Below the pieces are notes generated by a model that worked only from the letters and a program-made list of their open reading frames with translations, was not told the DNA's origin and did no database searches. A DNA stretch of 64,000 nucleotides from Callorhinchus milii (taxonomy: Eukaryota). Within the stretch, counting starts at the first letter, position 1. Every line of letters begins with the position of its first letter. Shown here one piece after another: positions 10,683 through 60,422 of the stretch. The position numbers were made by a program, and so were the translations under genes. Where the stretch lies: contig NW_024704762.1 of the NCBI RefSeq assembly GCF_018977255.1, positions 9,176,001-9,240,000 on the forward strand, given 5' to 3'.

Positions 10683-11457
10683 CTATGCCTCCAAGGTTGT
10701 GTCAGATTCCAGGGCCAGTTTGGTCAGCATCGCCATGTATTCACAGAAATCCACACCGTCGTTCTTGTTGTAATTCACTTTGGAGAAGATGCTTTCGATC
10801 TGTGCTGCTGATGCACCCTTTCAAGGCAGAGCAAGAGAAGTGTTAGATGGTTTTCTCTCGCTCCTCGTGAAAGTTCTTAACCGCTCAGCACACGAACAGC
10901 TGTCTGGTTTTCCGTAGCGTAGTGGTTAGCGCTCTCGCCTCGCAAGCGAGAGGTCCTGGCTTTGATTCCCGGGGTGAAACCTTAGACAACTTTCCTTACT
11001 CCAAGCACGCCTCTGTTTACCTAATAGTAAGTAGGAACCCCGATGTTTGTCGATTGGCGGATCGCTTTTCCGAGCCTACTAATTCCTCTAAAAACAAATA
11101 ATAATTTGGTCGCTCAATTCACGACCGTTTGTGGGACGCTCACTGCTGCGTGCAACTATTATTATTTATCTGACTTTCTCTCGCGGGTTAACCGAGTAGG
11201 CATCGAACGTAGGAGGCTCCTGTTCTGTGCAACAGGCAAGCCAAGGGAATGCTCAGCTGGTGTCACAAGGGGGCACTGTCAGTGTTCCTCATTACCTTCA
11301 AAAAGTTGGGGATTTGGCTCTGGAGCAGAGCTTTGAGCTCTTTCACGTCCAGAGAGTAGCGTGTCTTTCCATCTCTGACTTCTGCTCCAGCCGCCTCCTT
11401 AAAAATGATCATCAGCTTCACGATGGAGCTTTCCACCACTGTTGGCTCGTGGGACAT
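10683..11457 (-). CDS. Divergent S100 family protein, gene 3 (98 aa); coding exons 11457-11296 and 10817-10683
   Basis: MSHEPTVVESSIVKLMIIFKEAAGAEVRDGKTRYSLDVKELKALLQSQIPNFLK/GTAAT; second exon (hand-translated, absent from the ORF track) GASAAQIESIFSKVNYNKNDGVDFCEYMAMLTKLALESDTTLEA* after a pyrimidine tract and AAG; AATAAA near 10576-10581 (-). Confidence 0.85.
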
Positions 11458-12459
11458 TGTGAGATTCCCTGAAGCAAGATTAACTGGGAGTAAAAGCAGA
11501 ATAACAGCAAAGTTAGAACATTTCTCACTCTCACTCTCTCTCTCTCTCTCCATTCGCCCCCCACCCAGCCCCCACCCGCCCCATCTCCTCACCTGTTTGT
11601 TGGCCAGCTGAGTGCCTGACACATGCGGGAACCCATCACCGTGCTTAAGAGTATCCGAACCAAACTGAGAATTCACCTACACATGAAAATCCGCACTCTC
11701 TCTCTCTCTCTGGAGGGATGCATCCTGCTTACCTAATTCCAGAGAGTATTAGGCGCAGGTTGGTAAGAGCCCAGGGCTTGGGGGGATCCCAGACTGTACA
11801 TTGGGGTAACTGCTGGAGTCTCCAATTTTCTCCTGGGATCTGGTTCAATGGTCGGCATCCTGTACCTTGCCCCAAATACCCATAAAGGTGTGACCCTTGA
11901 TGGCAAGTGTTGGCAGGTCCTTCCGCCTTGGAGGGTACTTATGGCACCCAAGCCCCCCATCCTGTCCTCTTAACGGCCAGCAGACCTGCCAACCGTGACC
12001 TACTAACTCCCTCCACTCAGCAGGTTCCAGCCTGTTCGATGTCCCCCTCCCAGCCCGCCCTACCCCACCGATGGGTGGTCGGGTCTTCAGCCTCTCTGCC
12101 CCCACCCTTTGGAACTCCATCCCACAGTCCTTCACCTCTCCCCCTCCCTCTTCAAGGCCCATCTCAAGAAGCCTGAGGTTAAGTAAATCAGCCCAGGTCA
12201 AACCTCCCCATCCTCGCGTGACTCAGCTGCCAACCAGGTAAAGTTAACCAGTTGGTAACTTAGCTGTCGGGGGGAGGGGGTGCGAGAGAAAGGCTAACCA
12301 GCCAGAGTCACTGATAACGAAAGGACTTCTCCTGAGAAACAGAAATAAGTAAATATACAGCGGAACAAAGACATATCAGAGATTTTCAACCCTGCAAAAA
12401 AAGTGGATAAAATGTACAAGTTAAGTCCATTAAAAAAAAACCTCAGCTCTTAAAAGAAA

Positions 12460-24607: not shown

Positions 24608-24858
24608 GTCTGCGTCTGTGTATGGGTGGGTGTGTGCAAAGATTATTATCACTCGCTATTTATTTTTAAAAAATTGAGAAACAATTTCTGCTGAAGAAGG
24701 AAGGATGGCCCAGGTTTAAGAGTGAAACCTTTGTTCTTTTTACTAAACAGCAAATCGAATACAAACATGGTTTTGGGTTTGAAGATAAGATGAGTGGTCG
24801 TCCGTTAACGTTAGCTTCTGGGTTACATCACGTTACGTGCAAATCTGCTCATCTCTGC

Positions 24859-27579
24859 TCAACTTTTCTGAAACTGTTCGTGGCAAGCGATGGTCAGAGA
24901 AATCACCAAGATGGCAAACTCCTGGAAATCCACCGTGCCGTCTCCGTTGTGGTCCAGATCGGCCATGATCTTGTCCACAGCTTTTTCGTCCTTCTGGTTC
25001 TGAGAGACAGCGGCGGAGAGAGAGGCAGAGAGAGAGAGAGAGAGAGAGAATGAGGGAGATCTGGTTTAGCTTGAGAACTCAGAGCCATTACTGCACAGAA
25101 TCAACAACAACAAATGACATGACATCGTGGAGTCCTGTTGCTCAGTGGTTAGAGCACTCGCTTTGCAAGCGAGAGATCTGAGTTCAATTCCAGGCAGGGC
25201 GAAACCTCGGGCAAGTTTCCTTACTCCACACAGAGCCTAATAATAATCCCTCCAAAACCAAAAACAATAATAAATTGGTCATTTTCAATCTATGACTGTT
25301 TGTGGGACATTGCTGTGCGCAATTGGCTGCCGCGTTCGCCCACAAATATACAGTCCATTCACTTTACAGTGTGTTCTGTGAAGCGCTTTGGGACGTCCTC
25401 CCGACGTGAAAAGCGCTATATCAAGATGCAAGGATTATTATTATTATTATATTATTATTATTTACACAACGCCTTTCACGTCAGGAGGACGTCCCAAGGC
25501 GCTGGTAAAGTAGCGAAGATCATATTGATTAAAAAATCCAAGAGCTGGACGTAAAGTCACAAGGGCAAGTAACGAATGGATGATTAGCCAACGCTGTTAC
25601 AAAAGAATGCATTGGGTAGATGCCTAGAAGCATTGCAGCATTCTCTGCGGTTTGCAACCAGTCAGGTCTGGACGTGCAGATTAAGAGATAGATTAAGGAA
25701 TTTGGTGTCGGTTGACTTTCAAGTTCAAGATACAAAGCAGGGAATTCATTGCACATTCTCCGTTGGAGGGAACGGTTTAAAGCAGCTCCATTGCAAAATC
25801 TCCCAGGTCTGATGAAGTGCTAACTCACTTTCCTCTCTCTCTCTCTCTCTCCCTATAGATGCTGCCTGACCTGCTGAGTGTTCCCAGCCACTTCTGTTTT
25901 TATTTCAGATCTCCAGCATCTGCAGTATTTTGCCTTTGGCCAACAAAGTCTCCACTCAATTAGAATTTCCACTAAAGGACAAAAGGCCACTTGTTGGCAG
26001 ATCTTCACAAACCAGAGAATTATGGATTGAGCGATTCTGAACACGAGACAGAAAACTGTCACATGAGAGATTAGAACCATTAAAGCCAGTTAGGTCAACA
26101 TTTGGCAGTGCGGAGAGCCAGTCGTCAGTCAGTCAGTCAGTCACTCAGTCAGTGTTTCAGACAAGGCAAATGAGACTCTGTCATGAGAGTCAGTCAGCAC
26201 ATTGCGATGCTGTGTGTCAGGTTATCTCAGTTTGTAGTCCTGAGGACAAATAAGGTGTGGGCTGAGGTGGGATAGAGAATGGAATGCGTTCAGAGCAAAT
26301 TTTGATCCTTTGTTTCACAGTGGTTATAATAGAAAGTTTAGCATTGAAATAAAATATTTCCATAGTCCTCATTTCCTCATTTTTGTTCCTCTTTATTCAA
26401 GTTTTGCATATTTTCCGAGCAGTTTTGCATCCCAGATTTGACTGCTGCCCAATATGGTGTCTGTACCACAACGTATGCCCTTAGCATTGGGTAGCGTCTC
26501 AACAGTGGAGCGCTTAACAATGGCGGAGCTTGTCTCCGAGCCGGGGGGGGGGGGGGGGGTGGGTGCGGGGGGAGAGAGAGAGGGAGAGAGGGGAGAGAGA
26601 GAGAGAGAGAGAGAGAGGGGGGAGGGAGGTGACACTGTCAAAGACCACATTCCAGACTTCCAGTGCGATTTGAAGACAGGCAAGGAGAGGCGTGGGGACA
26701 AGCGGAGGCATCTGTTGAGCAGTCTTGACTACGAGATGAGGCGTTATATTGAATGCAGGAATTATTAATAATAATAATACTGTACTGTCCTGCAAACATT
26801 GAAAGCTCACTAGTAATAAGTCAAAAGACTTCCCCGCCCTTTTTCGTTTCTCCCTTGCTCTCACTTGTGAATTTCTTTACGATCTCCAATAAAACAAACC
26901 TTGAGGTTCAGACGCCTTTTATTAATGGAGGGTTGGTTTGCACAGAATGCCCCACCCGAAGACAGAATTTGCCAAGTTGGCAGAAGTTGCAATAATCTCT
27001 GGCTAGGAATGTCACACATTTGTTTCCAATCCCGCTGAGCGTAATTGGCAGCCACGTTTGGCCCACAAGACAAATTCTCTTTGCAATATATTCTGTGAAG
27101 CTCTTTGAGACGTCTCGAAGACGTGATAAGGCACTGAATGAAAAGCAGGGATTATTATTACGATTATTATTATAACAGCAGTATCCTTTCATTGAACATA
27201 CGGGTTCCGGATTCCAAGAGGGCCAAGATCTAGTCTCAGAGGGACAGCAGAAGGCCAACCCTCAAGCCTGCTCCATCCATTCTATTAGACCATGGCTGAT
27301 CTATATCTGTGACTCAACTCTAATTACCTGTCCTTGTCCTTGATGTCCCGACCTAAAAAAAAATCTAACTCAGGTTTGAAAATTTCAAATGAATTACCTC
27401 CGTCCCCACATTCCCAATCTCTGCGCAATGTTTATTACCTTCAGGAAGCATCCCAGTTCACCTTTAAAGAGATCCTTCAGTTCTGAATTGCTCAAGCTGC
27501 CTTTGCTGCCCTCTTTCTCGGAATATTTGTGGAAAATCGCCATGAGAGACAGCATAGCATTTTCTAGGTCGGAAGGCAT
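24859..27579 (-). CDS. S100 protein (S100Z/B/P-like), gene 5 (93 aa); coding exons 27579-27439 and 24999-24859
   Basis: MPSDLENAMLSLMAIFHKYSEKEGSKGSLSNSELKDLFKGELGCFLK/GTAAT ... CTCAG/NQKDEKAVDKIMADLDHNGDGTVDFQEFAILVISLTIACHEQFQKS*; both EF-hands intact; AATAAA at 24659-24664 (-). Confidence 0.95.
25127..25461 (+). mobile_element. tRNA-derived SINE, young subfamily
   Basis: Near-identical to the copies at 41591, 54045 and 56790. Confidence 0.9.
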
Positions 27580-34600: not shown

Positions 34601-34819
34601 GGAACGCACTGCCCGTGAAAGGGTGGTGGAAGCACTTTGAGAGACGTCTCAAAGCGCTTCACAGAATATACTCAAGTGAATTGACTGTATACTTTGCAGG
34701 GCTTTGTAGGAGAAAAGCAGCAGCCAATTGCGCACAGGGGTGTCCCACAAACAGCCGTGGATTGATTGAGTGACTGAATTATCATTTTTTTTCTTTCACT
34801 TTTTCCTTTGCTCATTGTT

Positions 34820-35200
34820 GGAGGAGGTTTCAGGCAAAACCATTCAGCCTTAGTTAACCTGGGGAAACCAGATGTGAATCATCTGACCAGTTACACCAGC
34901 ACCGGGATCACCCCCCCACCATTTACTGCGTCATCTTCCTCATCAGGCTCCCTGCGAATGGCGTGGCCTTATTTTTCCTGGTCGCCAGGATCAAGAAGAT
35001 GCCTTCGACCATCTTCCTCATCAACCTGGCCACAACGGACCTGCCCTTCAAGTTCTCTTACCACTTCCTGGGCGACAAGTGGACGTTCACCAGCACATTC
35101 TCACACAGGACAACGACCTATACCTCTGGTCCTCAGCACCTTCAACAGCTGCATTGACCCTTTCGTCCATCACTACATCCCCCAAAAGCTTCAGGGAGGA
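34820..35200 (+). pseudogene. Proteinase-activated receptor pseudogene (internally deleted)
   Basis: HLTS...IYCVIFLIRLPANGVALFFLVARIKKMPSTIFLINLATTDLPFKFSYHFLGDKWTF joined almost directly to [18 protein letters not shown]; frameshifts, a deletion in TM2 and loss of TM3-TM6. Confidence 0.88.
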
Positions 35201-35954
35201 CGTGATAGACAAGAGGAACCCAAAGATACAGTGAAAACATCACAACAAGTCAATCAGACCAACAATGTGTTAGGGTCTGGGACTAAAATTCAATGATGTC
35301 TTAGATTTGAACTTTTACGTATGTTCACTCTCTCACTTCCCTCTTGCCCTCCACCCCTCTTGATCCGGTTGCCTTGAGAAGATAGTGTTACCATCATGGT
35401 GTCGGGATTTTGACCTGTTAGACTTGTCAGCCCATTTGGATGAAATGGGCAACAAAAACAGTTAACTGACAATTTAATGCCGGATCCAAGCTTCACGTCC
35501 AATCATTGCAAGCGAAGATGGGGTGGGGGGGTGGGGGAACGGGAGGTAGGAGGGAATCCATAACCCACATGCGATTCAATCTGTTGTCTAGTCATTGATG
35601 AAATGGAACCGTCAACACTTTGATGGTGAGATACAGGTAGTGAGGTGGCCTCGCCAAGCTCCGCTCTATTGAGACTTTTGACTTGCAGAAACCCAACAGA
35701 ATAAAAACGAAGGGGATAAAATAACTCAAGTCTTATCTGTTGAGGTTCTCGTGATGTCATTTCCTTCTTCCCCACAGTGTCAGGAGATTGGACTTTGGTT
35801 TCCTGCTGTTCCTGATGCTTTTTGTTATCAATGTCTAATATGAGGAGGATGTGAGTTCCGACTCTCTCTCCTCCTTCTCTCTCTCCCTCTCTTTGCACTT
35901 CCCAAGGGAGCAAAGACACAGTGGGCTGACTGAGCTCTTTGAAGCCAACCAATA

Positions 35955-38404
35955 ATGGTTGGGTCTCGGATGCCCCTGGCTCTCCTTCTGTCAGTCCTGT
36001 TAATGTCCTACACAAGATTCTGCTGTTCACAGAGAGGTAAGAAATTTGTCTCTTTATTAGAATGAGTCTTGCATCTTTTGCCCGGGCCAATAGTTTTCTA
36101 TGTAATAATAACCCTGGCATTTGGTACAGCGCCTTATCAAGTTGATGAGACGTCTCAAAGCGCTTCACAGGATATATTGTGAAGTGGAGTGACTGGGTAT
36201 TTTGTGGGCAAAACATGGCAGCCAATTGCGACATAGATTGAATGGCCAAATTTCTTTTTTTTTAATTACCCCCGGAAAAGCAAGTAAGAGAGGGAGAAGG
36301 CATTTTGGAAGAATTGGTTCCACAGAGCAGGGATAGAGAGGCTGAGAGTTCAGTGACTGATGGTGGGACGAGGGGAAAAGTGGGGGGGGGGGGTAAGACT
36401 TGCAGCAAGACTGCATTTGGGGATCAGAGGGTATGTGTGGGGGAGAGCAAGGCTAGAAATTATTTTTTTCTATCATGCAGCTTCCCCAATTTCACCCCCA
36501 AAAATACACAGTCACTCCACTTTGAGTGTATCCTGCGAAGCGCTTTGAGATGTCTCGACGACTTGATACGGTGAGAGCTACATATCAAATGCAAGGATTA
36601 TTATTGTTGTTAATACAACATAAACCTCGGAAACCGCTATGGACAAGAGACACCCAACTCATCACACTCCCTTACTTTACTTGAGAGTCCCAGGTGTTCC
36701 TTTGGTTTCCTCAGTTCAGAGCCACAGTAAATTGGCTATATATTAAGTTTGCGCTGATGGGATCTGTAGATAAGATGAGAGCTAAGAGGTCATAGTTTCA
36801 GTACACCCCACCCCCCTGTCTTGGGGTCGTGCTCCACCACTATCAAGCGCTCTACTCTGCCTGAGGGGCGCTGAGTAAATGCAAATTGTTGTTGCTGTTG
36901 TTGTTGTGAACGAGAATGACGTGAAGGGTCTGAAGTCCAGGAGGGAATAAAATACAGAGATAAAACCATCTAAAAGCCATAATTAAACTAATAACAACAA
37001 TAATAATAAAAATAATTCTTGCATTTTATGTTCTGTATTTTTTTTCCCGCCCCGGCCTTATCACGTCTTCGAGACGTCTCAAAGCGCTTCACAGGGCACA
37101 CTGTGGAGTGGAGTGACTGTGTGTTTTGTGGGTGAAACTCTATTCTCTCCTCTCTGTCTATTGCAGACAACAACAGCAATTGCTTGGGAAGAGTCTTAAC
37201 CTTCACAAATTGTCAAGCCGACATAGGTAACCCCCTCCCGAACGGAGTCCTGGACAAATCGGCCAAATATCACCTGACCAGCCCCATCACCACGGTAGTC
37301 ATCCCCACCCTTTACACCTTGGTCTTTCTCTTCGGTTTGCCGTCCAACGGGCTGGGTCTTTTGACGCTGGTCCTAAAGATGGAGAAGACGCCGTCCACCA
37401 TCTTCCTGATGAACCTGGCGATGGCAGATCTGCTCGTGATCCTCATGCTCCCCTTCAAGATCCACTACCACTTCCTGGGGAACCACTGGGTGTTCGGGGA
37501 AGCTCTGTGCCGGACACTGACTGGCCTGTTCTACGGGAACCTGTACTGTTCCGTGTTGCTCCTCACCGCCATCAGCATCGACAGGTACCTAGCTTTAGTC
37601 CATCCCTTCTTCTCCAGGCGCTTCAGAGACAAGAGCTTTGCCATTTGTACCTGTGCCGTCATCTGGGTGTTGGTTGGTGTCTCCCTGATGCCATTGCTGC
37701 TCCAGAGACAGGTCTATACCTTCGAGGATCTGAACATCAACACCTGCCACGATATGTTGCCCGAGATCGAGTCCGATTACGTCCTCTATTACTTTGTCTG
37801 CCTGGTTGTGCTTGAGTTTGCAATCCCGTGCCTCATCATTATATTCTGCTACACGTCGATAATAAGGACCTTGATTGTGAACAAGAAGAAATACGCACGA
37901 GCTGCTAAGATCACCTTTCTGCTCCTCATAGCTTTCCTTCTTTGTTTCGCTCCCAGTAACATCACCCTTCTCATCCATTACTCTGTCCATCCTCGCACGC
38001 ACAACCACAACATCTACTTGTATTACTTGATCTGCCTAGCACTCTCCAGCTTCAATAACTGTCTTGACCCTTTCCTGTACTATTACATCTCGGATGAGTT
38101 CAGGGAGAAGGTTCGAAGCCTCTTTAGGGATGCAGAAGGCGAACACTCTCAGAAAACATCCCACAAGCTCATGTCAGCCAACACCTGCTCCAGATCGCCG
38201 CAAATGGCTTCTCTTCCACCCCCCGCACTGTCTCATGTGGTGTCCCTCAGGGCTCTGTCCTCGGTCCCCTCCTCTTCACCCTCTATATGCTCCCCCTTGG
38301 TGACATCATCCGCAGACATGGAGTTAACTTCCACATGTATGCGGATGACACCCAACTCTACCTTTCCTCCTCTACTCTCAACTCCACGACCACCGATGTC
38401 CTGA
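35955..38404 (+). CDS. Proteinase-activated receptor (PAR3/PAR4-like), PAR-A, 439 aa; exons 35955-36036 and 37167-38404
   Basis: Signal-peptide exon [33 protein letters not shown] (phase 1) joins in frame at TTGCAG/AC. 7TM has [32 protein letters not shown] and DPFLYYY. The C-terminal ~65-70 aa are read from an inserted LINE. Confidence 0.9.
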
Positions 38405-40873: not shown

Positions 40874-41188
40874 GCACTTCTGTGGAACATACACAACATT
40901 CAAGAGTAACGTGTGTTGGTGGGCTATTTTACTTGAACAAGTTATGTCAGGAAATTGCTCCTCACCCTTACATCGAGAACATGTGCTAACTTGAGTTAGC
41001 TCAGTTTAAAGGCATTCTCGCTAATCTGTTCCTATTTACCCAATCCAATCATATCCTATGGAAATGCCCAAGTAGGAAATAACATTCCCAGCTTAGGAAA
41101 CTGGAACTAGTTGGTTTGGAGGGAGCGAGAGAGAGACAGAGAGACAGAGAGAAAGAGTATGTTGGAGGTGGGAGGCAAATGTGCCATT

Positions 41189-44100
41189 ATGAACAACCCT
41201 CATCTGTTACAAACTCTTCTCTTCTCTCTCTTAATATCCTCGGCTTACGGTGGTAAGTTTATAATTTTACTTCATTCAAAGTTCCTGGGGTGACAAAAGT
41301 AATAAAGAGTGGCTACGGTCTGGAAGGCACTGCCTGAGAGGTTGGTGGAAGCAGATTCGATAGTAGCTTTCGCGAGGGAACTCAACAGGGACTCGAAAAG
41401 GAAACATCTGCAGGGCTATGGGGTAAGGGGGCAGAGGAGTTGGATAGCTCTTTGAAAGAGCCGGCAACTCCATGGTGATAATAGTAATAATAATAAGAAT
41501 AATCCTTGTATTTGATGTAGAGCCTTATCAGGTTGCCGAGATGTCTCAAAGTGCTTCACAGAATATATTGTAAACAACCATAACTTGCATGTGGAGTCCT
41601 GTAGCTCAGTGGTTAGAGCACTCGCTTTGCAAGCAAGAGACCTGAGTTCAATTCCAGGCAGGTCAGGGCGAAACCTTGGGCAAGTTTCCTTACTCCACAC
41701 AGAGCCTAATAATAATCCCTCCAAAAAACAAAAACAATAATTAAATTGGTCATTTTCAATCTATGACTGTTTGTGGGACATTGCTGTGCGCAATTGGCTG
41801 CCGCGTTCGCCCACAAATATACAGTCAACTCACTTTACAGTATATTCTGTGAAGCGCTTTGGGACGTCCTCCCGACGTGAAAAGCGCTATATCAAATGCA
41901 AGGATTATTATTATTATTATTTATATAGCGTCCCGGAGCTCTTGACAGTGGAGGAGTCGGACACCGAGGCAGAGGGGAGGTGGGGGGGGGGGGTGGAGAA
42001 GTGACCGTAAGCCCGATCAAAAAGGAAGGTCTTTGAATAGGATTTGAAAGTGGGCAGGGAGGGTGCGAGGGGGGGCGATTGAGGGAGAGGGCTCCAGAGT
42101 TTTGAGAGGATCTTGAATTCGATCCGTTCAGTGACGAGTTATCAGGAGTGGTGAGTATAAATACATAAATAAATTCAGTGGGGATATTGACAGTGTGATG
42201 ACTTAAATGGTAGTGACAAGTAAACCAGGGTCAAGTTATCAGGAGTTTACTGTTATTATTAAAGATGATATTATTAGTAATACGTGATTTAAGTGCTGTA
42301 AGATGTTTCATTTTAAACTTCATAAAAATATAGAGTTATTCTTAAATCTTACGAATCCCAATTTGATATTCATCCCAAAATATTTGTTGGAAACTCAGGA
42401 CAAGTTTGATGTGATCAGTTCGATCAAGTTCAAGGATTGTTATTGTTATGATGATGATAACTGTGATTTATGGATGCTTTATGATACGAAAGTGGATTGT
42501 ACTCCAGTCTGGGTGAGCTGTGAAGGTGTTTCAGCGCCTTGGGACGTCCTCCCGACGTGAAAGGCGCTATACAAATTTAATCTTGTTGTTTCTCCCTGAG
42601 CGCTGGTGAACAAAACTCATGAAAAAAAATTGGTCACTCGTTCCACGGTTGTTTGCAATACACTACTGGGCACAAACTGTCTGCCATGTTTCACCCACAA
42701 AAACACACAGTCACTCCACTTTACACTGTATTCTGTGAAGCGCTTTGAAACGTCTCGACGACGTGATAAGGCGCTGTATGAAAGCAACAACAACAACAAA
42801 GTTACACTTGTATAGCACCTTTCACGTCGGGAGGTCATCCCAAGGTGCCGGACAGACAGGGTTACGGACCCGAGCTGGGGGTTCGGATGGGGGAGGGTGG
42901 AGGGTAGGTGGGGGGAAAGCAGGGAGATCGAAAGCACGGTTGAAGAGGGGAGGGTCTTGAGGTGGGTCTTGAAGGTGGCGAGGAAGGGGGGGGGGGGAGG
43001 CAGTGGGACTGCAGGATGGAGTTCCAGAGGGTGGGGGCAGAGTGGCAGAAGGCCCACCTGCGAATAGCGCGGCGAACGAGGACATGAAGCAGGCAGAGTA
43101 AGAATTATTATTATTATTATTAGTTATTATTATTATTTTAGTAACTTGCTGGTGGAAGAGCTTTTCCAATGTTAATTCATCTAATGCTATTCCTCCTGAG
43201 CAGATGGCGATGGGAACACGACAACTGATATAGTCGAGACAATCAAATACTTTATTATTCACGAATCTAGCTTGATAACTTTCAAGAATCTCAGCGTCAA
43301 TGAGCTTGAGAATATGACTGACTATGTCTGGAAAAACCTCACCATCTACAAGGTTGACAACATCACGAGAGGCCACTTGACTGGTGCGGTCACTACGGTG
43401 TTCATTCCAACTCTCTACATTCTGGTGTTCGGCATTGGGCTGCCCGCCAACGCACTGGGGCTCTGGATAATGATCACGAAAATCAGGAAGCTGCCCTCCA
43501 CCATCTTCCTCATCAACCTGGCCACCTCAGACCTGCTCCTCATCCTCATGCTGCCCTTCAAGATCTCCTACCACCTGATGGGCAACGACTGGATATTCGG
43601 CGAGGCTTTGTGCCGACTCTACACCGGGCTCTTCTACGGCAACATATACTGCTCCATCCTCCTCCTCACCTTCATCAGCGTCGACCGCTACTTCGCCCTG
43701 GTCCACCCGTTCCTCTCGCTGGGCTTCAGGGACAAGAGGCTTGCCTGTGGTGTTTGCCTGGGCACCTGGGCCCTGGTGTCTCTCTCTCTGCTGCCTTTCC
43801 TCCTGGTGCAGCAAACCTACCATATCCACAACCTAAACGTCACCACCTGTCACGACTCGTTGCTCTCGGAGCAACGTAGCGGCTATTTCTTCTATTACTT
43901 CGCTTCCCTGGTCATCGTGGAGTTTGCCCTGCCCTGTGCCATCACCCTGTTCTGCTACGGCTCCATCATCAAGACCCTGGCGTTCAACGAGAAGAAATAC
44001 AAGCGGGCGGCGGGCGCGACCACCCTCACCCTCCTGGTCTACGTGCTGTGCTTCACTCCCAGCAACGTCATCCTCCTGACTCACCACCTGCAGTTCTTCC

Positions 44101-44381
44101 TCAACCACCACAGCGACCTGTACATCTACTACATGCTCAGCCTGGCTCTCAGTGGCTTCAGCAGCTGCCTGGATCCCTTCATCTACTATTTTGTGTCCGA
44201 CGACTTCAGAGCCAAGGTCCAAGCGACACTTTGCTCCCGCAAGGAGAAGGGCGGCCGGGAAACCTCGCCAAAAGTCTTGCGAGTGAAGCCCCCCATCAAC
44301 ACGGTCCCCTTGACATCCTCCTTCACCTCCACCGCCACAGCCGCAGCCGCGCCCCAGCTTTTGAACAGCCTGGAGACCTGA
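41189..44381 (+). CDS. Proteinase-activated receptor (PAR3/PAR4-like), PAR-B, 413 aa; exons 41189-41252 and 43204-44381
   Basis: Signal exon MNNPHLLQTLLFSLLISSAYG G/GTAAG; acceptor GAGCAG/AT in frame with the 369-aa ORF; GLPAN, DRY, TTCHD and DPFIYYF motifs. Confidence 0.93.
41591..41921 (+). mobile_element. tRNA-derived SINE, young subfamily
   Basis: GTGGAGTCCTGTAGCTCAGTGGTTAGAGC head (A box), TTGCA anticodon-like loop, GAGTTCAATTCC B box and (ATT)n tail. Confidence 0.9.
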
Positions 44382-46514
44382 CCACACAGGGAGACTGACT
44401 GACTGAAGCAGAAAGAAATACGGAACCCTTACATTTTAACAGCCTCCTCCCTCACCACACACACTGACACACACACATACACTGACACACACTGACACAC
44501 ACACATACACTGACACACACACTGACACACACCCCGCACCCTCCACCACACCCGCCCCTCCCCCCCCGCATCAGCTACAAAATACACAGTCACTCCACTT
44601 TCAGCATCTCCTAGAGGGGGACACTGCGTGTTTGTGGGCGATATTAATTATTACGGTGGTTTTTCATTGATTCTCAGGTAAACTCACACACTCAGATTAC
44701 TCGCAAATGATACTGTCAATTCACTTTACACTCTATTCTGTGAAGCGCTTTGAGACATCGAGAAGACATGAAAAGCGCTGTATCAAATGCATGGATTGTT
44801 ATTATATTATTATTACTTTTTCCAGCTTAATAAAAAGGAGTAAATGTACGTTTTTGTGTTGAGCTGTTTCTTTGTGTTTATTGACCATTAAAGCATCAAA
44901 ATTCCAGGAAACTTGAGGAATGTGATTAAGTCCAGAGTGTGTCTATCTCTCGTTCCTCTCTATTCACAGGACAGGATTCCCCTTGTTTTCATCTTACCTA
45001 GAAATAGATGAAGCACGGCTGTTAGTCAATTGGCGGATCACTTTCCAGGGGTAATAATCCACTCCCCCAGCACCCTGACCCCGAAAAAAATTTGGTCATT
45101 CAATCCACGACTGTTTGTGGGCCACAGCTGTGTGCAATTGGCAGTCAAGTTTCGCCCACAAAATGTCCAGTCACTCCCCTATATCCTGTGGAGTGCTTTG
45201 AGATGTCTCAACGACGTGATAATGCTCTATATCAAATGCAAGGATTATTATTGTTATTATTCATTGCTCCTCCAATATATATTATGAAAGCAAACGTCAC
45301 CTCATCAATACCTGAAGCTCTCGATACCCCATCACCTCATGTCCTCTGTGTAAAACGTAGGGTTACGGTTGGAAATATTTCTCCCCTTCTTCAGGGAAAT
45401 GTATTTTAATCAAGCTTCAGATGAGTTGGCGTTTTTCTGTTAAAATGTGCGTAAAGTGATAAGAGTCAGCCTGGCTCAGTCGCTAGCCCTCACGCCTCTC
45501 AGTCAAGTGGCTGTGGGTTCAAGCCCCCAAGTCGGGATCTTTGTAGACAACACTGATGCTGCAATACAGTGCTGGGGGCGGGGGTTGGTGGGGCTGCATT
45601 GCCGGAGATGCCGTCCTTCAGATGAGACGTTAAACTAACGTCCTTCTGTTGAGGGGGAAGTTAGAGATGACATGTCACTGTTTGAAAAGAGATGGAACTT
45701 CTTCTCTTCCATCTGTGGTGTCTCTCTCTCTCTCTCTCTCAATCTGTCTGCGAAAGCACCTCACCAGTATCAAGCAGGACATCTGAGCTCAGGAAGCTGC
45801 CGTGAACACTTCACCGCGGGTTAACACTAAGCTCAAACTCCAATGACTTGATTCCAGAGCCTCTGAGCAATGGCAATGTGGGAATATACCTGTTGTGGAG
45901 TGCCGTAGCGTAGTGGTTAGAGCGCTCACCTCGCAAGCAAGAGAACCCGGGTTCGATCCCCAGGTAGGGAAGTTTAGGCAAGTTTCCTTATTCCACACGC
46001 CTCTGTTTACCTAGCAGTAAGTTAGTCAAATGGCGGATCGCTTTTCTGGGGGTAATAATCCCTCCAAGAAAATTAATCTTTAAAACAATAATTTGGTCAC
46101 TCAATCCACGACTGTTTGTGGGACGCCGCCGTGCGCAATTGGCTGCCGTGTTTTGCCCACAAAGAATACAGTCAATTCACTTTAAAGTATATTATCTCGA
46201 AAATATGATAAGACACTGTATCAAATGCAAGGATTATCATTATCATTATTATTATAGTCTGTGCGATAAGTCTTTCCCGAGGTGAGCTAAGAAATTGCTG
46301 CTCGCTCTTACTCTTCAAACGTTCTGAACCAACGACAACATCTACTAATGTGATTCTGAGCCATGAGGTCAGTTTAAAAGCATCCTTCTCGTCTGCTCCC
46401 ATTTCCTCTCCCACTTATGCACAAGTAGGAAATAACATTTCCAGCTCAGGAAACAGTTAGTTCGGAGAGAGAGAGAGTGTGTGTGTGGGACAGCTGGGAG
46501 GACCGTGTATCATC

Positions 46515-47483
46515 ATGAACTCTCCACATCTGATACAAACTCTTCTCTTCGCTCTCTTAATCTCCTGTTGCACTTCTGACTTCTTGAGTTACAACTGTAA
46601 GTTTATCATTTTACTGTATTCAAAATTCCTGGGATCACAAAGATAACATAAGGGTTGTTACGGTCTGGAACGCACTGCCTGAAAGGGTGGTGGAAGCAAA
46701 TTGGATAGAAGTTTTCAAAGCGGAATTGGGATAGTACTTGAAAAGGAAATCTTGGCTGTGGGGTACAAGCCGGGGGAGTAGGACTCGTTGGTGGCTCTTT
46801 CTAAGACCTGCACCTGCACGATGGGCCGAATGTCCTCCTTCTGTGCTGTGAGATTCTATGATTCTATGAAACTTTTGTTACGAGGTTAAGTTTTCCCGAA
46901 GCTTTCTGTTCGGCTCTGCTTTCGAGACTGCGATGTCTGAAACGGGTGAAAATGTTCACACAGGTTACCAACAGATTATCAAAGGGCAGAGAGGATTCAT
47001 TTATTAAAGGGGTGGTGTGTGGGGAAGGGGAAAAGGGGTAATTTACGGGCGTATACCCACAAAATCCACTTTAAGTACATTCTGCAAAGCGCTTTGAGAT
47101 GTCTCGACGATGTGAAAGGAACCATATCAAATGCAATCAAAGGATTATTATTATTATAATGTGCCCTAATTAAAATTATTATTATAATAATTCATTTGAA
47201 CCGGAGCCTTTTGCGCGTGTAGTTTTTTTTATTTTGAGTGTATAACGGTTCATCTCAGGGCGCAGAAAACAAGATATTAAAAGAGACACTGAAACTCGTG
47301 ACTGGGGCTCTCGAATTCGAAATAAATTCTTTCCGAGAGATTCTGCTTCAAATCGAAGCTGAAAATTTACAGAAACAAAACCAGCCATCACCGTTTCGCT
47401 GTCTGTCAAAAGTTTCCTTCCTCTAAATTAAGTGGTTTTGATAAAAGTGTAAATAAACAAGCGATTAGAAAGAGACTTCAAAG

Positions 47484-47514
<31 letters not shown>

Positions 47515-49612
47515 CCTTGCATTTGATATAGCGCTTTTCACGTCGGGAGGACGTCCCAAAGCGCTTCACAGAACACACTGTAAAGTGAATTGACTGTATA
47601 TTTGTGGGCGAACGCGGCAGCCAATTGCGCACAGCAATGTCCCACAAACAGTCGTAGATTGAAAATGACCAATTTTTTTTTTATTATTATTTTTGGTTTT
47701 TGAAGGGATTATTATTAGGCGTGTGGAGTAAGGAAACTTGCCCAAGAAACACAGTGGCTGGAACCGGTGTCGAGTGCACAGAATCTTCCTGCCTCCATCC
47801 GGCCACTGTCTTTGGAAGGTTTAAGCATTTGTGTGTCTTGAAAGTTGATTTTTTTGTTCTCCTTAAAGCAAAAGACTGGAGTCTAACTTGCGATATTTCT
47901 TTCTTAACGGTAATCAACAACCACAGTAACAACAAAGCGACGTGTGGAAAGCGCCTTTCACGTCAGGAGCACGTCCCGCGGTGCCGGACAGACAGAGTTA
48001 CGGACCCGAGCTGAGGGTCAGGGTGGGGGAGGGCGGGACAGCGGGGGTGGGGGGTGGGGGGAAGCAGGGAGATCGAAAGCAAGGTCGAAGAGGAGGGTCT
48101 TGAGGTGGGGCTTGAGGTGGGGTGACGAGAGAGGGGGCGAGATGGAGGGATTGCGGGATGGAGCTTCAGAGGGTGGGGGCAGAGTGGAGCAAGGCCTCGC
48201 GTAACGCTGATCGTGGGGCGAACGAGGCGGTGGATGTGAAGCAGGCCAGAGCCCACTGAGCGGAGGGAGCGAACAGGGTGGCCGGGGAGTTAGGAGGTGG
48301 GAGAGGTCGGGGGGAGCAAGACCATGGATGGGCTTTGAAGGTGAGGACCTGGATCTTGAACTGTATCCTCTGTGTGATGGGAGGCCAGCGGAGTCGGGCG
48401 AGGATGGGGGTGATAGGGTCGCGGAGCCCGGTGCTGTGGAGGGAGAAGTTGGGGGAGGCCAACAAGCAGTGAGTTTGCGCAGTCGAGCCTTGATGTAATG
48501 AAGGCGCGTACGAGGGTATGAAGTTTCCTCACTCCGCACACCTCTGTTCACCGAGCAGCAAGTAGGAAACCGGTTAGTCGATTGGCAGATCGCATTTCCT
48601 GAGCTTAATCATCCTTCAACAATAAATGAATAAAATAATATTTTTTTAAAAATTGGTGACTCACTCAATCCAGGACTGTTTGTGGGAACCTGCTGCGCGC
48701 AATTGGCTGCTGCTTTTCGTCCACAAAATACAGTCACTTGACAGTATATCCTGTGAAGCGCTTTGAGACGTCTCAAAGACCGGTTAAGACTCTATATCAA
48801 ACGCAAGGATTATTATTATTAATTAATAATAAGTGGATTATTATTATTAATAATAATAAGTCTCTCCCTGTCCCTCTGAGTCCCCTCAAAGGTGGCCAAC
48901 TTTTGGTGTGATGCAACGTGAATTCATCTATTTTTTTTCTTCCACTTGTGTTTGCAGTCACAGATTACAATTACGAGAGAAGTATAATGCTCAATGAGTC
49001 GACCTACAATTACGAGGGAAGTATAATGCTCAATGAGTCGACTGACTTTGCAATGTCGAAAGCAAATCCCAGAGGCTTCCGTCCTCATTATGAATTGATA
49101 CCAGTGATTGTCACCATAAATAACAGAACCTTCTACACAATGAAGAACCTCAGCAACGTTGACAACATCACGAGAGGCCACTTGACTGGTGCGGTCACTA
49201 CGGTGTTCATTCCAACTCTCTACATTCTGGTGTTCGGCATTGGGCTGCCCGCCAACGCACTGGGGCTCTGGATAATGATCACGAAAATCAGGAAGCTGCC
49301 CTCCACCATCTTCCTCATCAACCTGGCCACCTCAGACCTGCTCCTCATCCTCATGCTGCCCTTCAAGATCTCCTACCACCTGATGGGCAACGACTGGATA
49401 TTCGGCGAGGCTTTGTGCCGACTCTACACCGGGCTCTTCTACGGCAACATGTACTGCTCCATCCTCCTCCTCACCTTCATCAGCGTCGACCGCTACTTCG
49501 CCCTGGTCCACCCGTTCCTCTCGCTGCGCTTCAGGTGAGCAAATACTCAGAGTAGAGTCAGTAGATGTGGAGGTTCACTCTTCGTGACAATGCTACTGTT
49601 TGAAGGCAGACA

Positions 49613-49647
<35 letters not shown>

Positions 49648-50469
49648 TCTTTCCATCGTGAAGTCCCGTAGCTCAGTGGTTAGAGCTCTCGCCTTGCAAG
49701 CGAGAGGACCCAGGTTCGATTCCCGGGTGGGGCAAAGCCTTAGGCAAGTTTCCTTACTCCACACACACACACTTTTTTTGATGCAACAAAGACGTGATAA
49801 GGCGCGCCGTCAAATGCAAGGATTCTTATTGTTGTTACTATTATTATATTCAGGGACAAGAGGCTTGCCTGTGGTGTTTGCCTGGGCACCTGGGCCCTGG
49901 TGTCTCTCTCTCTGCTGCCTTTCCTCCTGGTGCAGCAAACCTACCATATCCACAACCTAAACGTCACCACCTGTCACGATGTGTTGCCCTTGAGACAACA
50001 GAACGGCTATTTCTTCTATTACTTCGCTTCCCTGGTCACCGTGGAGTTTGCCCTGCCCTGCGCCATCACCCTGTTCTGCTACGGCTCCGTCATCAAGACC
50101 CTGGCGTTCAACGAGAAGAAATACAAGCGGGCGGCGGGCGCGACCACCCTCACCCTCCTGGTCTACGTGCTGTGCTTCACTCCCAGCAACGTCATCCTCC
50201 TGACTCACCACCTGCAGTTCTTCCTCAACCACGACAGCGACCTGTACATCTACTACATGCTCAGCCTGGCTCTCAGTGGCTTCAGCAGCTGCCTGGATCC
50301 CTTCATCTACTATTTTGTGTCCGACGACTTCAGAGCCAAGGTCCAAGCGACACTTTGCTCCCGCAAGGAGAAGGGCGGCCGGGAAACCTCACAAGAACTT
50401 TTACGTACCACCACCACCTCCACAACGACCAACTTCCTCTACACGTCCCACTCGAAGACCGTAGTCTGA
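46515..50469 (+). CDS. Proteinase-activated receptor (PAR4-like cleavage site), PAR-C, 424 aa if spliced; exons 46515-46596, 48958-49534, 49854-50469
   Basis: Signal exon MNSPHLIQTLLFALLISCCTSDFLSYN T/GTAAG; acceptor TTTGCAG/TC; ANPR/GFRPHY site. The 7TM region is nearly identical to PAR-B but is interrupted by a 319-nt GT..AG insertion whose removal restores the frame. It could instead be a disrupted pseudogene. Confidence 0.8.
47940..48525 (-). mobile_element. L2/CR1-clade LINE 3' fragment in PAR-C intron 1
   Basis: AFITSRLDCANSLL and RIQFKI motifs plus the family 3' end. Confidence 0.85.
49658..49848 (+). mobile_element. Internally deleted tRNA-derived SINE inside the PAR-C insertion
   Basis: GTAGCTCAGTGGTTAGAGC...GGTTCGATTCCC head joined to the GACGTGATAAGGCG..CAAATGCAAGG(ATT)n tail; central core missing. 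Confidence 0.85.
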
Positions 50470-50562
50470 GTGAATAGCCTCTGACTCGCTGGAGACCTGA
50501 CCCCACAGGGAGACTGACTGACTGTCCAGCTTGCCTTGTCAAAAGCAGAATGAATTGTCATC

Positions 50563-50940
50563 TTGTAGCTTAGTGGTGAGAGCGCTCCCCTTGCAGGCGA
50601 GAGGACTTGGGTTCGATTCCCAGCCCGGCAGGGAAAAATCTTAGGCAAGTTTCCTTACTCCACAAGGCTCTGTTTACCTAGTGGTAAGTAGGAACACGGT
50701 TGCCAGTCGATTGGCGCATCGCTTTCCGGGAGTAATAATTCCTTAAAAAAAAATAATAAGTTGGTCACTCAATCCACGACTGTTTATGGGACACTGCTGT
50801 GTGCATTTGACTGCCAGATGTCTCACACAAAATATACAGTCATTTCACTTTACAGTGTTTTCTGTGAAGCGCTTTGAGAAGTCTCAAAGACATGATAAGG
50901 CAGTATATCAAATGCAAGGATTATTATTATTATTATTATT
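50563..50940 (+). mobile_element. tRNA-derived SINE in the PAR-C 3' UTR region
   Basis: Full head-core-tail copy. Confidence 0.85.
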
Positions 50941-52109
50941 TTGTTAGGTTACTGACTGAGCTCCACTCTGTGTGTGTTACCTGTTACACAGTAGAGAACA
51001 AGTGGAATTGACCTTAGTGGCGATAGAGATGGTGAACTTTCAAGGCAGTGTGTGTGTGTGTGTGTGAACCCTGTCAGCTCAAGTAATGTCAGGGACTTAG
51101 GCCAAACTGGGGGTCAACTTTCAAACCATTTGGACTCAATTGTCCTTTGATACAAAACTGGATGTTGCACACAGAGAAAGATAGTTACCTTCACTACGTC
51201 CCGACACAAAACTAGTAAAGAATCCCACTAAGCTTGGGAGATGGTGTAAGCATGAAGTGCTGATCCTCTTAAGAACAAATTAGATAGATTTCCGTGAGGA
51301 ATTAATATCTCGGGATACAATACTATATTTGGGGCACGACATGAGGTAAGCAACGGCCAGGATGGTGGAAGGCAAACTGGATGGACCTTGGTTTTCTTTC
51401 ATCCGGCAAATTCTCAGCTTCTTATATTCTTATAAACTGCATTCAACTTCCTACTGACAGACACCTGGTAATCATATTTATGCCACACATTCAGCCCCAC
51501 AAGCTTGCCGCTGTGAAACCTTCCCAGGTATTTCCATTTGCTGTTAATTCTCATTGCCGGCTCATTTGAACAATAAAGAAAAAGTTTGTAACTTGTGAGT
51601 TGAATGGTTGTTTGACTTCAGTAATTCAAAGAGCTGACACAGACACGACGGGCCCGAATGGCCTTTTTCTGTGCTCTAAATGCGCGCGCACGAAATACGC
51701 AGTGAATTCACTTTACGGTATTACTCTAGAGGGGACCGAGTGTCCCATGAACACCACCTGACACTACCACCCCACCACACAGCCACACTTTCTGATGAAC
51801 AACACTACAGGGCAGCTTTGGTACAAAGCACCTCAGGGCACTTCACACATAATTGCTGACAAGTGTCGTGACTGTATGTGTAAACAACTATTGTAAAATA
51901 ATAACTCTCTTGGACAAGAGGCCGCAAACAACCACGAGGGGAACGAACAATTGTGGGCCAGGACACTGGGAGAGACTCCCTTCGCTCTTCAAACGACACC
52001 ACGGAATCTTTATCTCGCGCATGTACCTGTACAAGCACAGACTCACCCTCAGGATGGCACCTCAGATAATGCCATAGCCCGCGCCCCCCTCAGTTCTGCC
52101 TTGATATGG

Positions 52110-52260
52110 CCGCCCAGCCGCATCTCCACCAGCTTCCTCTACGGCAACATGTACTGCTCTGTCCTCCTCCTCGCCTTCGTCCGTTATTTCTGGTCTTTCG
52201 CCAGCGTGGGCTGGGTGCCTTGCCATGTCTGCTCGCTCTGGTGCGTGATGTGGCTGTGAT
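52110..52260 (+). pseudogene. PAR pseudogene fragment (TM3-TM4 remnant)
   Basis: RISTSFLYGNMYCSVLLLAFVRYF matches TM3 of the neighbouring PARs (FYGNMYCSILLLTFISVDRYF) with a deletion in the DRY region; flanked by SINE and LINE pieces. Confidence 0.75.
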
Positions 52261-57559: not shown

Positions 57560-60422
57560 ATGCTGCCATCACCCTCGCCTGGATCAGTGGTCCTCCTGCT
57601 CGTTCTCAGTTGCTTAGCCACAGCCTTCTCCACACATAACTCTGACGGTAAGACACTGACCTTCTTTCCAGTCACTCTTAAGAGACTCATAAGGGGAGAA
57701 ATTACGCCCGGGTCTGGATTCATTCCGTTTTCGTAGCATTTAAAAGAGAGTTCAGAATTTGGCAAATTGTTAAAACACTTCCCTTTACTGAATATCTCGT
57801 AGGTTTGGTGTTAGCCTGGCTCACTTTGGTAGCACTCCTACCTCTGAGTAAGAAGTAACCCGAGGAACCTCTGAAGGTTGTGGGTTCAAGCCCCACATTG
57901 GGACTTTGAGCTCTTATGTCTCGGCTGACGTTTTCCAATGCAGTGCTGCGGGTAATGCTGCACTGTTGAAGCTGCCTGTTCAAGTAGATGTTAAAGGTAC
58001 TAGAAAAGAGGAGGTTTCTCCCAGTGACTTAGCCAACAATCCCTGGATAAAATATGTCATTCACTTTATGCGTGTTGATGGAACGTTGCCGGGTGCAAAC
58101 TGGCCGCACAATTTGTCCTTAAAACACACGGTCACTATACTTTGAAACCCCAGTTCAACGGGGAGGGTTTCAGGTGGGATTTTAAACAGCCAGGGAACAG
58201 GGCGAAGGTGGAAGGATTTGGGGAGAGTTCCTGAGATCAAGCACAAAGCAACCAGGAGATTGGCCACCATTTGTGAAGCAGAAGCAGACGGAAATCGTGA
58301 GATTAGACGTGGTCGGAGGAAAATGTAGAGATAAGAGTCTTGCACATTCAACACAGGATCTGAGGTCCCGCTCATGCAGCCACTTTTAGTGCAACCTTCA
58401 GATAAGATGTTAAATGTTAGATCTGGCGTCCTGTAGAGTAGTGGTTAGAGCCTTCGCCTCGCAAGCGAGAGGACCCTGGTTTGATTCCCGGGCAGGACCC
58501 AAACTTAGGCAAGTTTCCTTACTCCACATGCCTCGGTTTACCTAGCTGTAAGTAGGTGGCCGTTGGTCGATCGGCGGATCGCTTTTCTGGGGGCTAATAA
58601 TTCTTTCAAAATAAATAAATAAATTGGTCACTCAATCCATGACTGTTTGTGGGACACTGCTGTGAGCAATTTACTGCCACATCTTGTGATAAGGCGCTAT
58701 ATGAAATGTAAGGATATTATTATCCCTTCTGTATGTTTACTCCTACCTCCGTTCCCACAAAATGCTCCAGTGTCATTGCTAATTCCTTTAAACTCACTTC
58801 CTCTTTGCAAGTACTATGGTGCAAATGAGATGCCTGCAATAATTTCGAAAATGTCTGAGGAACTGGAAGAGGACCTTCAGCCCCTCGAACCTGTTTATCC
58901 ATTCTATAAGATCATGGCTGATCTGTACCTCAACTCCAATTACCCGCCTTTGCCCCATATCCCTTGATACCCTGACCTAACAGATATCTATCCACCTCAG
59001 TCTTGAAAATTTGCATCCAGCCAGAATCCACAGCCTTTTGGGGGAGTTTCTTTTTTAAAAGAACTTTTGTGAGGTCTGGAGAATTGCTCATCCAAAGGCA
59101 GAACTACACCCAGATAAATTGCTCCCCACCCGCCCTGCCCCCTCCTTTCCCATCTTCAGGTCGCACCTGAAGACCTTCCTATTCGACCGTGCCTACGGCT
59201 ATCTGCCCCCTCCCCCAGGCTCGGCATCATGCTCGGCCACTGCCAAGAGCTCTGGGAAGCTATATAAATGCAAGTTGCTGTTGTTGTTATTTCGGCAGTG
59301 ATATCAAACAAATGCAGGGATTCTGAATCATAAAAGGTACTTATTCCTTCCCTCTCTTTCCGTACAGTGATAGAAAAAGCACAATTCCCCAAGTCCAGAA
59401 AATTTCCCATCTATTCGGTTACACAAGATGGTTCAAACCAGACCATCCACAAAGTCAATGAATCGGTCACCAACTACCTGACCGGCAAAGAGATGACACT
59501 GGTGATACCCTACCTGTATTTGGCGATCTTCACCATTGGCCTTCCCGCCAATGCCTTGGCTTTCTGGGTTCTCTTCAGCAAAATCAAGAGGCTTCCCTCC
59601 ACCATCTTCTTCCTCAACTTGGCCTTGGCTGACCTGCTCCTAATGCTTGCCTTACCTCTCAAGATCTCCTACCACCTGTTGGGCAACGACTGGCTATTCG
59701 GGGAGGCCATGTGTCGGGTGTCCAGTGTGATCTTCTACGCCAACGTGTACTCCTCCATCCTGCTACTCACCTGCGTGGCTGTGGACCGTTACCTGGCAGT
59801 GGTCCATCCCTTCTTCTCAAAGGAGCTCAGAACAAGGTCATTCGCCTGGTTCCTCTGTGGCGTTAGCTGGGCTCTGGTATTATTCGCCATGCTGCCCTAT
59901 TACGTCACCCAGCAATCCTACCCAATCGCCGAACTCAACATCACCACTTGCAACGAATTCTTACCCTCCATTGTCCTCGCCAACTATTTCGACAATTACA
60001 CTGTGGGCCTGGTTGTGTTTGGGTTTGTCCTTCCCTGCCTCATCATTGTATTCTGTTACGTGTGTGTGATCAGAATTCTAGTACTCAACCGGGAGAATTA
60101 CACACAGGTCATTAAGGTGACTTTGTTGGTCTTACTGGTATTTCTGATGTGCTTGACTCCCGGGCAGGTCTTCCTATTAATCCAAATTTATACAAATAAC
60201 ATTGACTTTTATAAATATTTCTTGATTTTCCAAATTCTCAGCACTTTCAATAGCTGCATTGACCCATTCATCTATTACTATGCCTCCAGTGAATTCAGGG
60301 CCAAACTGAAGGGGGCAATCTCTACTAACCAGAAAGGGAGCGTACAGGTGTCTAGTAAAACAAAACTGTCAATGCTACAGACTAACAGTTCATCCCAGGC
60401 CAGTGGTCCTGTGCCAGTTTAG
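57560..60422 (+). CDS. Proteinase-activated receptor-like, PAR-D, 380 aa; exons 57560-57647 and 59368-60422
   Basis: Signal exon [35 protein letters not shown]; acceptor polypyrimidine-TACAG/TG in frame; [29 protein letters not shown] and [11 protein letters not shown] motifs. Confidence 0.92.

Follow-up and report, generated by a model that had tools for sequence, protein, structure and literature searches.

Mobile-element insertion is an established idea for the origin of spliceosomal introns, and a short interspersed nuclear element (SINE) is reported to have made a coding intron in rice catalase A (Sela et al. 2007, PMC2394776; citations here and below refer to the accessible portions of each paper). 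The transposon-insertion model names two routes to functional splice sites, a duplicated AGGT target or sites carried by the element, and its table of such gains has entries only for Oryza, Drosophila, Oikopleura and Zea (Yenerall and Zhou 2012, PMC3443670). For vertebrates, the accessible text of Sela et al. gives SINE-made coding introns as never reported by then and adds four Alu cases in 3′ untranslated regions (UTRs), and the papers on introners (PMC9860276, 2022; PMC12130899, 2025; review PMC11282704; Gozashti et al.), of which ~5% of those classified are non-LTR (long terminal repeat) retrotransposons, describe an apparent lack of recent vertebrate intron gain. SINE insertion is a rarely documented route to new introns in vertebrate coding sequence, the origin of most gained introns is untraceable, and few vertebrate cases reveal their mechanism. 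Here we describe such a case in a 64,000-nt stretch of the Callorhinchus milii genome (contig NW_024704762.1, positions 9,176,001 to 9,240,000, forward strand; hereafter the window), which contains four intact proteinase-activated receptor (PAR)-like genes in tandem, PAR-A to PAR-D. PAR-C contains a 319-nt insert, and we hold with good confidence that this is a single SINE copy, absent to the base from transcript assemblies, that is most likely a spliceosomal intron and probably arose by one old retrotransposition into a PAR-C exon.

This locus resembles the rice catalase A intron in that SINE insertion gives a new intron inside coding sequence, and differs from it in being in a vertebrate, in its tRNA-derived SINE with a tail shared with a long interspersed nuclear element (LINE), in its donor-carrying 5′ extension, and in the empty site preserved in an adjacent paralog. 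The Alu intronization cases in human last exons (PMC2394776) are likewise new vertebrate introns made by SINE insertion, but these lie in 3′ UTRs, are alternatively retained and have no end-to-end match to the element, whereas the PAR-C intron lies in coding sequence and its removal restores the codon exactly. Like the transposon-insertion model (PMC3443670) it has a protosplice-like target and precise removal, although it is a hybrid with the donor from the element and the acceptor from the host, at a target reading AG/GG rather than AGGT (a slash marks a splice junction). In introners (PMC9860276, PMC12130899), too, the element provides one splice site and the target duplication the other, but introners are families making many similar introns; at PAR-C one intron is known, and it differs from 10 relatives by 20–32% pairwise (68–80% alike) where introners have recent, highly similar copies. 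The PAR-C intron behaves like an introner insertion, yet with one known intron and old copies it would not qualify as an introner family. Coding introns 3 and 5 of notothenioid slc26a2 (Torii et al. 2025, PMC12357937) are also vertebrate coding introns of mobile-element sequence; they occur in teleosts with high intron turnover, derive from elements with putative direct and inverted repeats, and the word SINE is absent from the main text. By contrast, intron changes are fewer in C. milii than in any other vertebrate of the comparison in PMC3964593. In a survey of teleost intron gains in G protein-coupled receptors (PMC3151243), the terms F2R and thrombin do not occur in the accessible text, and literature searches, which covered few subscription papers, returned no report of the PAR-C intron or of a SINE-made vertebrate coding intron.

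The insert begins with GTGAGC and ends with TTCAG. Its parts and its empty counterpart are as follows (window coordinates):

49535..49853, + strand: putatively gained phase-2 GT-AG intron of 319 nt, wholly one 5′-extended, internally deleted SINE
49530..49535, + strand: left TTCAGG, with AGG common to target and element (5′ microhomology)
49532..49540, + strand: splice donor CAG/GTGAGC, with TGAG homologous to the element's own AG/GTGAG
49536..49657, + strand: element 5′ extension, with a (CT)n tract at 49615-49644
49658..49772, + strand: tRNA-derived SINE head, tRNA-Ala-like at 49663-49734 (ARAGORN)
49773..49779, + strand: internal-deletion junction, with ~200 nt of SINE body lost
49780..49850, + strand: SINE 3′ end shared with a LINE, then a decayed (ATT)n tail (49822-49850) as T-rich tract
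49849..49854, + strand: right TTCAGG, with TT common to the tail (3′ microhomology) and the host CAG/G acceptor
43725..43730, + strand: empty site with a single TTCAGG in PAR-B

Removal of the insert leaves an open frame, ...HPFLSLRFRDKRLACG..., that runs through the stop codon at 50467-50469 and restores LRFRDKR; if it is left unspliced, a TGA follows immediately at 49536. The intron is in phase 2, splitting AG/G of an Arg codon, and the TTCAGG pair cannot be extended beyond 6 nt. PAR-B reads CTTCAGGGACAAG at 43725-43736 without interruption. A preliminary description of this locus, made from the sequence, had reported the bounding 6-bp repeat, the restored frame, the TGA and the uninterrupted PAR-B, and all are confirmed. 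No PAR homology was found inside the insert, contrary to what intronization or tandem duplication of former exon sequence would leave. The structure is beyond chance because repeat-family homology spans the donor to the (ATT)n tail that ends at the acceptor and because RNA-like contigs skip the same 319 nt.

The insert aligns to a mobile-element family end to end, from donor to tail, and the family alignment leaves no non-element sequence within the intron. Its 3′ two-thirds correspond to the common tRNA-derived SINE of the genome (4083 candidate relatives). The remaining ~120 nt adjoin the same SINE upstream at other loci of the 992-Mb C. milii genome (matched loci are numbered L002-L076), although only about 10 copies carry this extension, six of them (L002, L030, L032, L044, L051 and L071) at greater length and four (L055, L057, L058 and L060) in shorter, 5′-truncated form. 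These ten relatives have a common 3′ part and differing 5′ starts, as would be expected of retroposed copies from one longer RNA, a putative 5′-transduced retroposon group. Two of them, L030 and L071, reach ~90 nt further upstream; the extension is at least 200 nt long in both and holds the AG/GTGAG donor-like motif. The alignments indicate that the whole intron is a single element and that its 5′ part, which the preliminary description had left unexplained, belongs to a low-copy 5′-extended SINE family; genome searches of the kind that it had proposed recovered the extended relatives. In these searches, matches to the 5′ part elsewhere did not exceed 92% identity (over 38 nt) or, for long matches, 80–82%. 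Upstream of the donor motif in four relatives, open frames reach at best 15, 99, 46 and 7 codons. The family alignment leaves out L048, L049, L052, L075 and L076 (chance pattern matches), L061 (which duplicates L055) and L059. An Rfam search gave one weak and irrelevant match, on L030/L071. Four copies of a ~2-kb duplicated unit on contig C30 (L003-L006), which contains LINE fragments, hold 45–70 nt of the extension with no adjacent SINE.

The SINE itself is likened, by description rather than by Repbase sequence, to the major tRNA-derived SINE of C. milii (PMC1845163; SINEX-1_CM/SINE2-1_CM with partner CR1-2_CM in the table of PMC3747384): both have a tRNA-like head, a LINE-shared 3′ end and very high copy number, and the PAR-C copy differs in its 120-nt 5′ extension (about 10 copies) and in being without ~200 nt of the body. 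The SINE 3′ end matches a LINE end at window 8440-8570 in 39 of 56 columns, partly simple repeat. The lost segment contains a GTAAGT donor-like site in six of ten relatives, and no copy with the same internal deletion was found among 39 non-self copies of 40 scored from the 4083 candidates. Selection for the deletion, as a way of eliminating rival splice sites, stays a conjecture; L059 carries another internal deletion.

Eleven sequencing runs contain the stretch (seven guessed to be RNA and four unlabelled, with none recorded as RNA), and contigs from X1, X2, X3 and X11 were aligned to 46400-50620. Because intron 1 is spliced in X1, X2 and X3, which join 46596 to 48958 (GT..AG), unlike X11, these three are treated as RNA-like. 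Contigs of all three (from two studies) skip 319 nt, passing from 49531 to 49851 in adjacent record coordinates, and this is the same as removal of 49535-49853 because the 6-nt repeat makes the joins equivalent. Record 20 of X2 (depth 32.3) covers 49224-49531 with no differences, including the PAR-C-diagnostic 49450G and 49528C, and goes on without a gap to 49851-50620 (one difference, at 50540) through the extracellular loop 2 (ECL2), tail and UTR found only in PAR-C; it is therefore not derivable from reference PAR-B or from unspliced PAR-C. This is the transcript that the preliminary description had proposed to look for, with PAR-C-specific bases and ECL2 and without the insert. Records from the other study (X1 record 1 and X3 record 21) lead from the PAR-C-only exon 1 across the intron 1 join and the 319-nt skip to the PAR-C-type ECL2. 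Depth in the bin 49502-49642 equals that of its 30 exonic nt alone in X1, X2 and X3, but RNA contigs drop rare forms and the missing intron cover is only a weak hint of splicing. Stretches uncovered in the contigs (49018-49223 in X2 and 48958-49153 in X11) carry no evidential weight. The DNA-like X11 matches 49497-49603 with no differences and so places the left junction of the insert in another sample, and X8-X10 contain 0.80–0.85 of sampled words, compared with the 0.73 of all 31-mers shared by a spliced copy, and are likely to have the insert as well. The NCBI models XP_007897150.1 and XP_007897150.2 both read LRFRDK and already splice at the insert. The insert is probably a real coding intron, and a constitutive one.

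PAR-A, PAR-B, PAR-D and seven further receptors (L012-L018, on contigs C1 and C4) align unbroken across the intron site. In two of these, L017 (C1:117348041) and L018 (C4:79371054), the alignment shifts frame once, and they may be frameshifted copies, assembly errors or carriers of short introns elsewhere. In a tree of 28 rows PAR-B and PAR-C are sisters (100/100), next to one clade of shark proteins. A single gain in PAR-C would be the simplest reading, since ten paralogs are uninterrupted and PAR-B and PAR-C are sisters. Together with the contigs these alignments support the earlier proposal of a real intron gained by retroelement insertion and precisely spliced, with an empty site in PAR-B. 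Among 15 candidates, the only homolog of the PAR-C-specific N-terminus found was PAR-B, which left no chimaera ortholog for dating.

The preliminary description had called PAR-B a near-identical neighbour, and for the transmembrane core (window 43353-44267 against 49158-50391) this stands: 18 of 915 coding nt differ (98% identity), as does one of 150 fourfold sites. Elsewhere it does not, as no alignment of the N-termini was obtained and the three alignable non-coding blocks differ by 18–20% (Kimura two-parameter distance, K2P, 0.21–0.24). Because the coding core is near-identical while non-coding sequence is ~20% different, gene conversion is the likely source of the identity, and the identity therefore does not date the insertion; more generally, near-identical paralogs do not date insertions under gene conversion. 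Of the 14 codons that differ, 11 alter the amino acid, and six of these lie within 27 nt in ECL2, which forms a conversion-resistant island inside the homogenised core. In PARs the tethered ligand binds to this loop. The pattern suggests that selection keeps PAR-B and PAR-C distinct and working, and because ECL2 and both termini stayed distinct despite conversion it suggests that PAR-C is a functional receptor.

Compared with the majority of 10 extended relatives the insert differs at 29 of 231 sites (K2P 0.14). Compared with its 11 nearest head neighbours it differs at 7 of 111 head sites (four at CpG) and 5 of 38 tail sites, an estimate that is low since this set is biased towards similarity. 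At 6–14% from the family majority the insert appears to be old, and the earlier label of a newly born intron is not supported, the more so as the PAR-B/PAR-C identity likely reflects conversion. A rate of 2.2e-9 per site per year is cited for mammals in PMC4422223, with ten times less assumed for C. milii; a divergence of 0.06 at the mammalian rate corresponds to about 27 million years as a rough floor. Gain after the PAR-B/PAR-C duplication is not proven. An insertion of the same SINE before the duplication, with PAR-B later losing the intron precisely by recombination with spliced cDNA, would account for the insert divergence of 0.06–0.14 overlapping the per-lineage non-coding divergence (half of the PAR-B/PAR-C distance, about 0.10–0.12) and for the homogenisation of the exons right up to the intron junction. 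However, it needs two events rather than one, PAR-B retains its intron 1 (exon 1 at 41159-41251), and the best-matched subfamily estimate (12 of 149 sites) falls below the duplication age; we consider it unlikely.

The donor at 49532..49540 is the sole GT(A/G)AG donor-like site within the intron. At the position where PAR-C has TTCAG/GTGAGCAAAT, four of the five long relatives read TTAG/GTG(A/T)GGAAAT, and a pattern search for the donor motif gave four matches compared with none for a control pattern. The presence of the motif in relatives at the homologous position means that TGAG is element-borne and that AGG is common to element and target. As the last TT of the (ATT)n tail overlaps the TT of the target at the 3′ end, the C is the one base of TTCAGG that must be duplicated host sequence, and the true duplication is therefore 1 to 6 nt. 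Since the target reads AG/GG, duplication alone could not have created a GT donor; the splice sites do not both come from a duplicated AGGT, and the element-borne-sites route of the transposon model applies. The host CAG/G serves as acceptor; ahead of it are the T-rich tail (pyrimidines at 17 of 25 positions) and a branch-like CTTAT whose A is 26 nt from the 3′ end, and there is no AG between -35 and the acceptor. The preliminary description had taken the G of the donor and the CAG of the acceptor from the two repeat copies and the T-rich tract from the SINE tail; the host CAG and the tract stand, but the duplication alone does not account for the donor. The idea that the tail had been tuned into a better pyrimidine tract was dropped, as 16 other tails in the window span a range of A/T counts that includes those of this one. 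Each of the longest relatives has 10 AGG triplets, 2–3 of them followed by T, and a truncation landing exactly on the element donor would be uncommon but not remote.

In the mechanism we propose, a LINE enzyme would have reverse-transcribed a 5′-extended SINE RNA at the target TTCAGG, with the (ATT)n tail pairing with the target TT. The 5′ end would have been joined through the AGG common to target and element, so that the cut fell at the element's own AG/GTGAG, which became the donor, and the host CAG/G behind the T-rich tail would have turned acceptor, so that splicing restores the codon without adding or removing a base. Some 200 nt of SINE body, with its competing donor-like site, would have been lost as the element inserted or later. 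Conversion with PAR-B may then have maintained 98% identity in the exons on either side and spared the intron, with ECL2 and the two termini remaining different.

Besides the overlap in age, several points weigh against SINE retroposition into PAR-C and constitutive splicing. Sixteen ordinary copies show anchored repeats of 0–4 nt, all shorter than the 6-nt repeat here, although in this test true copies were no different from mismatched controls and it tells only that long duplications are not the norm. A search for the source locus of the extension gave only the two longest copies and two unrelated matches. Shark orthologs were compared as proteins, in which exon structure is not visible. The transcript comparison used assembled contigs rather than raw reads, and the RNA label is a guess supported by the spliced intron 1. 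The 319-nt junction was taken from one contig table and is not among the rows listed in another, X11 record 14 mixes a PAR-B-type ECL2 with a PAR-C tail so that contigs can be paralog chimeras, and the Ensembl model A0A4W3H591 uses a different join at the insert (HPFLS/DKRLA). Finally, X1 and X3 both carry a single unlisted difference close to one end of the exon 2 piece (48958-49531), possibly the PAR-B-type G at 49528. If so, these two contigs are not clean proof, and PAR-C alleles converted from PAR-B beside or across the intron may be segregating.

This last point bears on a very unlikely alternative, that the insert is a null mutation (through the stop at 49536) and the skipped contigs come from intron-less PAR-C alleles converted from PAR-B. 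Such alleles would fit the conversion tracts, which extend to both junctions, and a 49528G in X1 and X3, and no run pairs DNA and RNA of a single animal. But X2 has the PAR-C-type 49528C beside the junction, the donor and acceptor sit exactly where the frame is restored, and the reference and X11 contain the insert, as do X8-X10 judging by word share; moreover, the insert-bearing copy has an intact PAR-C-only exon 1, N-terminus and tail, and the transcripts differ from it by 1–3 bases per piece.

Little credence is due to capture of the element in double-strand-break repair, with either a genomic copy or its RNA as the template and microhomology at the two ends, in place of LINE-primed reverse transcription. 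The microhomology, the internal deletion and a direct repeat longer than the family norm would suit it, yet the 3′ end lies exactly at the (ATT)n tail, the relatives share their 3′ end and are truncated to varying degrees at the 5′ end, as retroposed copies should be, and genome searches found no close donor copy. The version first put forward, a newly born intron with splice sites from the 6-bp target-site duplication and a 5′ part of unrelated origin, can claim a real repeat, a host-derived acceptor CAG/G and a standard priming model that allows the full 6-nt duplication, but is largely refuted by the 6–14% family divergence, the donor motif of the long relatives and the family membership of the 5′ part, and is hardly credible. 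An ancient intron with a later SINE insertion inside it, for which it can be said that by splice-consensus frequencies an estimated ~0.5–1% of ordinary introns would carry such a 6-nt repeat, or a misassembly, can be practically discounted given an intron without non-element sequence, ten uninterrupted paralogs and the left junction in the independent X11.

A SINE-made, codon-exact coding intron with a traceable donor is an instance of the established transposon-gain idea, here in vertebrate coding sequence. PAR-C offers an element family, the two insert junctions, an empty site and spliced transcripts together, in a species reported to have fewer intron changes than the other vertebrates compared (PMC3964593). 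The case indicates that a sense-strand SINE can turn into an exact coding intron by a simple route, with the donor from the element and the acceptor from host and tail. Its weight is that of a single event in a single gene. A broader reading is speculative and, taken as a whole, doubtful: microhomology joining between a target AGG and an element AG/GT would make LINE/SINE retroposition a built-in intron maker, with truncation landing on the donor and the duplicated AG/G plus T-rich tail as acceptor; (ATT)n-tailed chimaera SINEs would have made further exact coding introns; and the intron may be lost again in living animals by conversion from PAR-B. If true, intron gain and loss would both occur at one site within one species, and further exact coding introns would exist in the vertebrate with the slowest intron turnover.

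The genes of the cluster and the exons of PAR-C are:

37136-38404: PAR-A open frame
41159-41251: PAR-B exon 1 (PAR-B keeps intron 1)
43200-44381: PAR-B open frame
46515..46596, + strand: PAR-C coding exon 1 (ATG, signal-peptide-like), placed by tblastn with NCBI model XP_007897150.2 and by the 46596 to 48958 join
48958..49534, + strand: PAR-C exon 2, with the PAR-C-specific N-terminus, transmembrane segments TM1-TM3 and DRY motif
49854..50469, + strand: PAR-C exon 3, with TM4-TM7, the PAR-C-specific ECL2 island (49978-50004), PAR-C-specific tail and stop
59334-60422: PAR-D open frame

PAR-C after splicing encodes 424 aa, and the PAR-B core is a 100% match to a C. milii protein named proteinase-activated receptor 3-like. 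The two XP_007897150 models wrongly join neighbouring PAR genes (PAR-B with PAR-C in one and PAR-C with PAR-D in the other), and with these fused models PAR-C is left without a clean protein record among the records compared. Its N-terminus contains an in-frame 39-nt tandem duplication (window 48967-49044; 13 aa twice) followed by ANPR/GFRP, which we take to resemble a thrombin-type cleavage site. Two degraded PAR-like fragments are also present in the cluster (window 34778-35296 and 51897-52259). Beside it, frames at about 11263-11676, 14105-14536 and 24670-25053 appear to resemble S100 and CRF-binding-protein exons.

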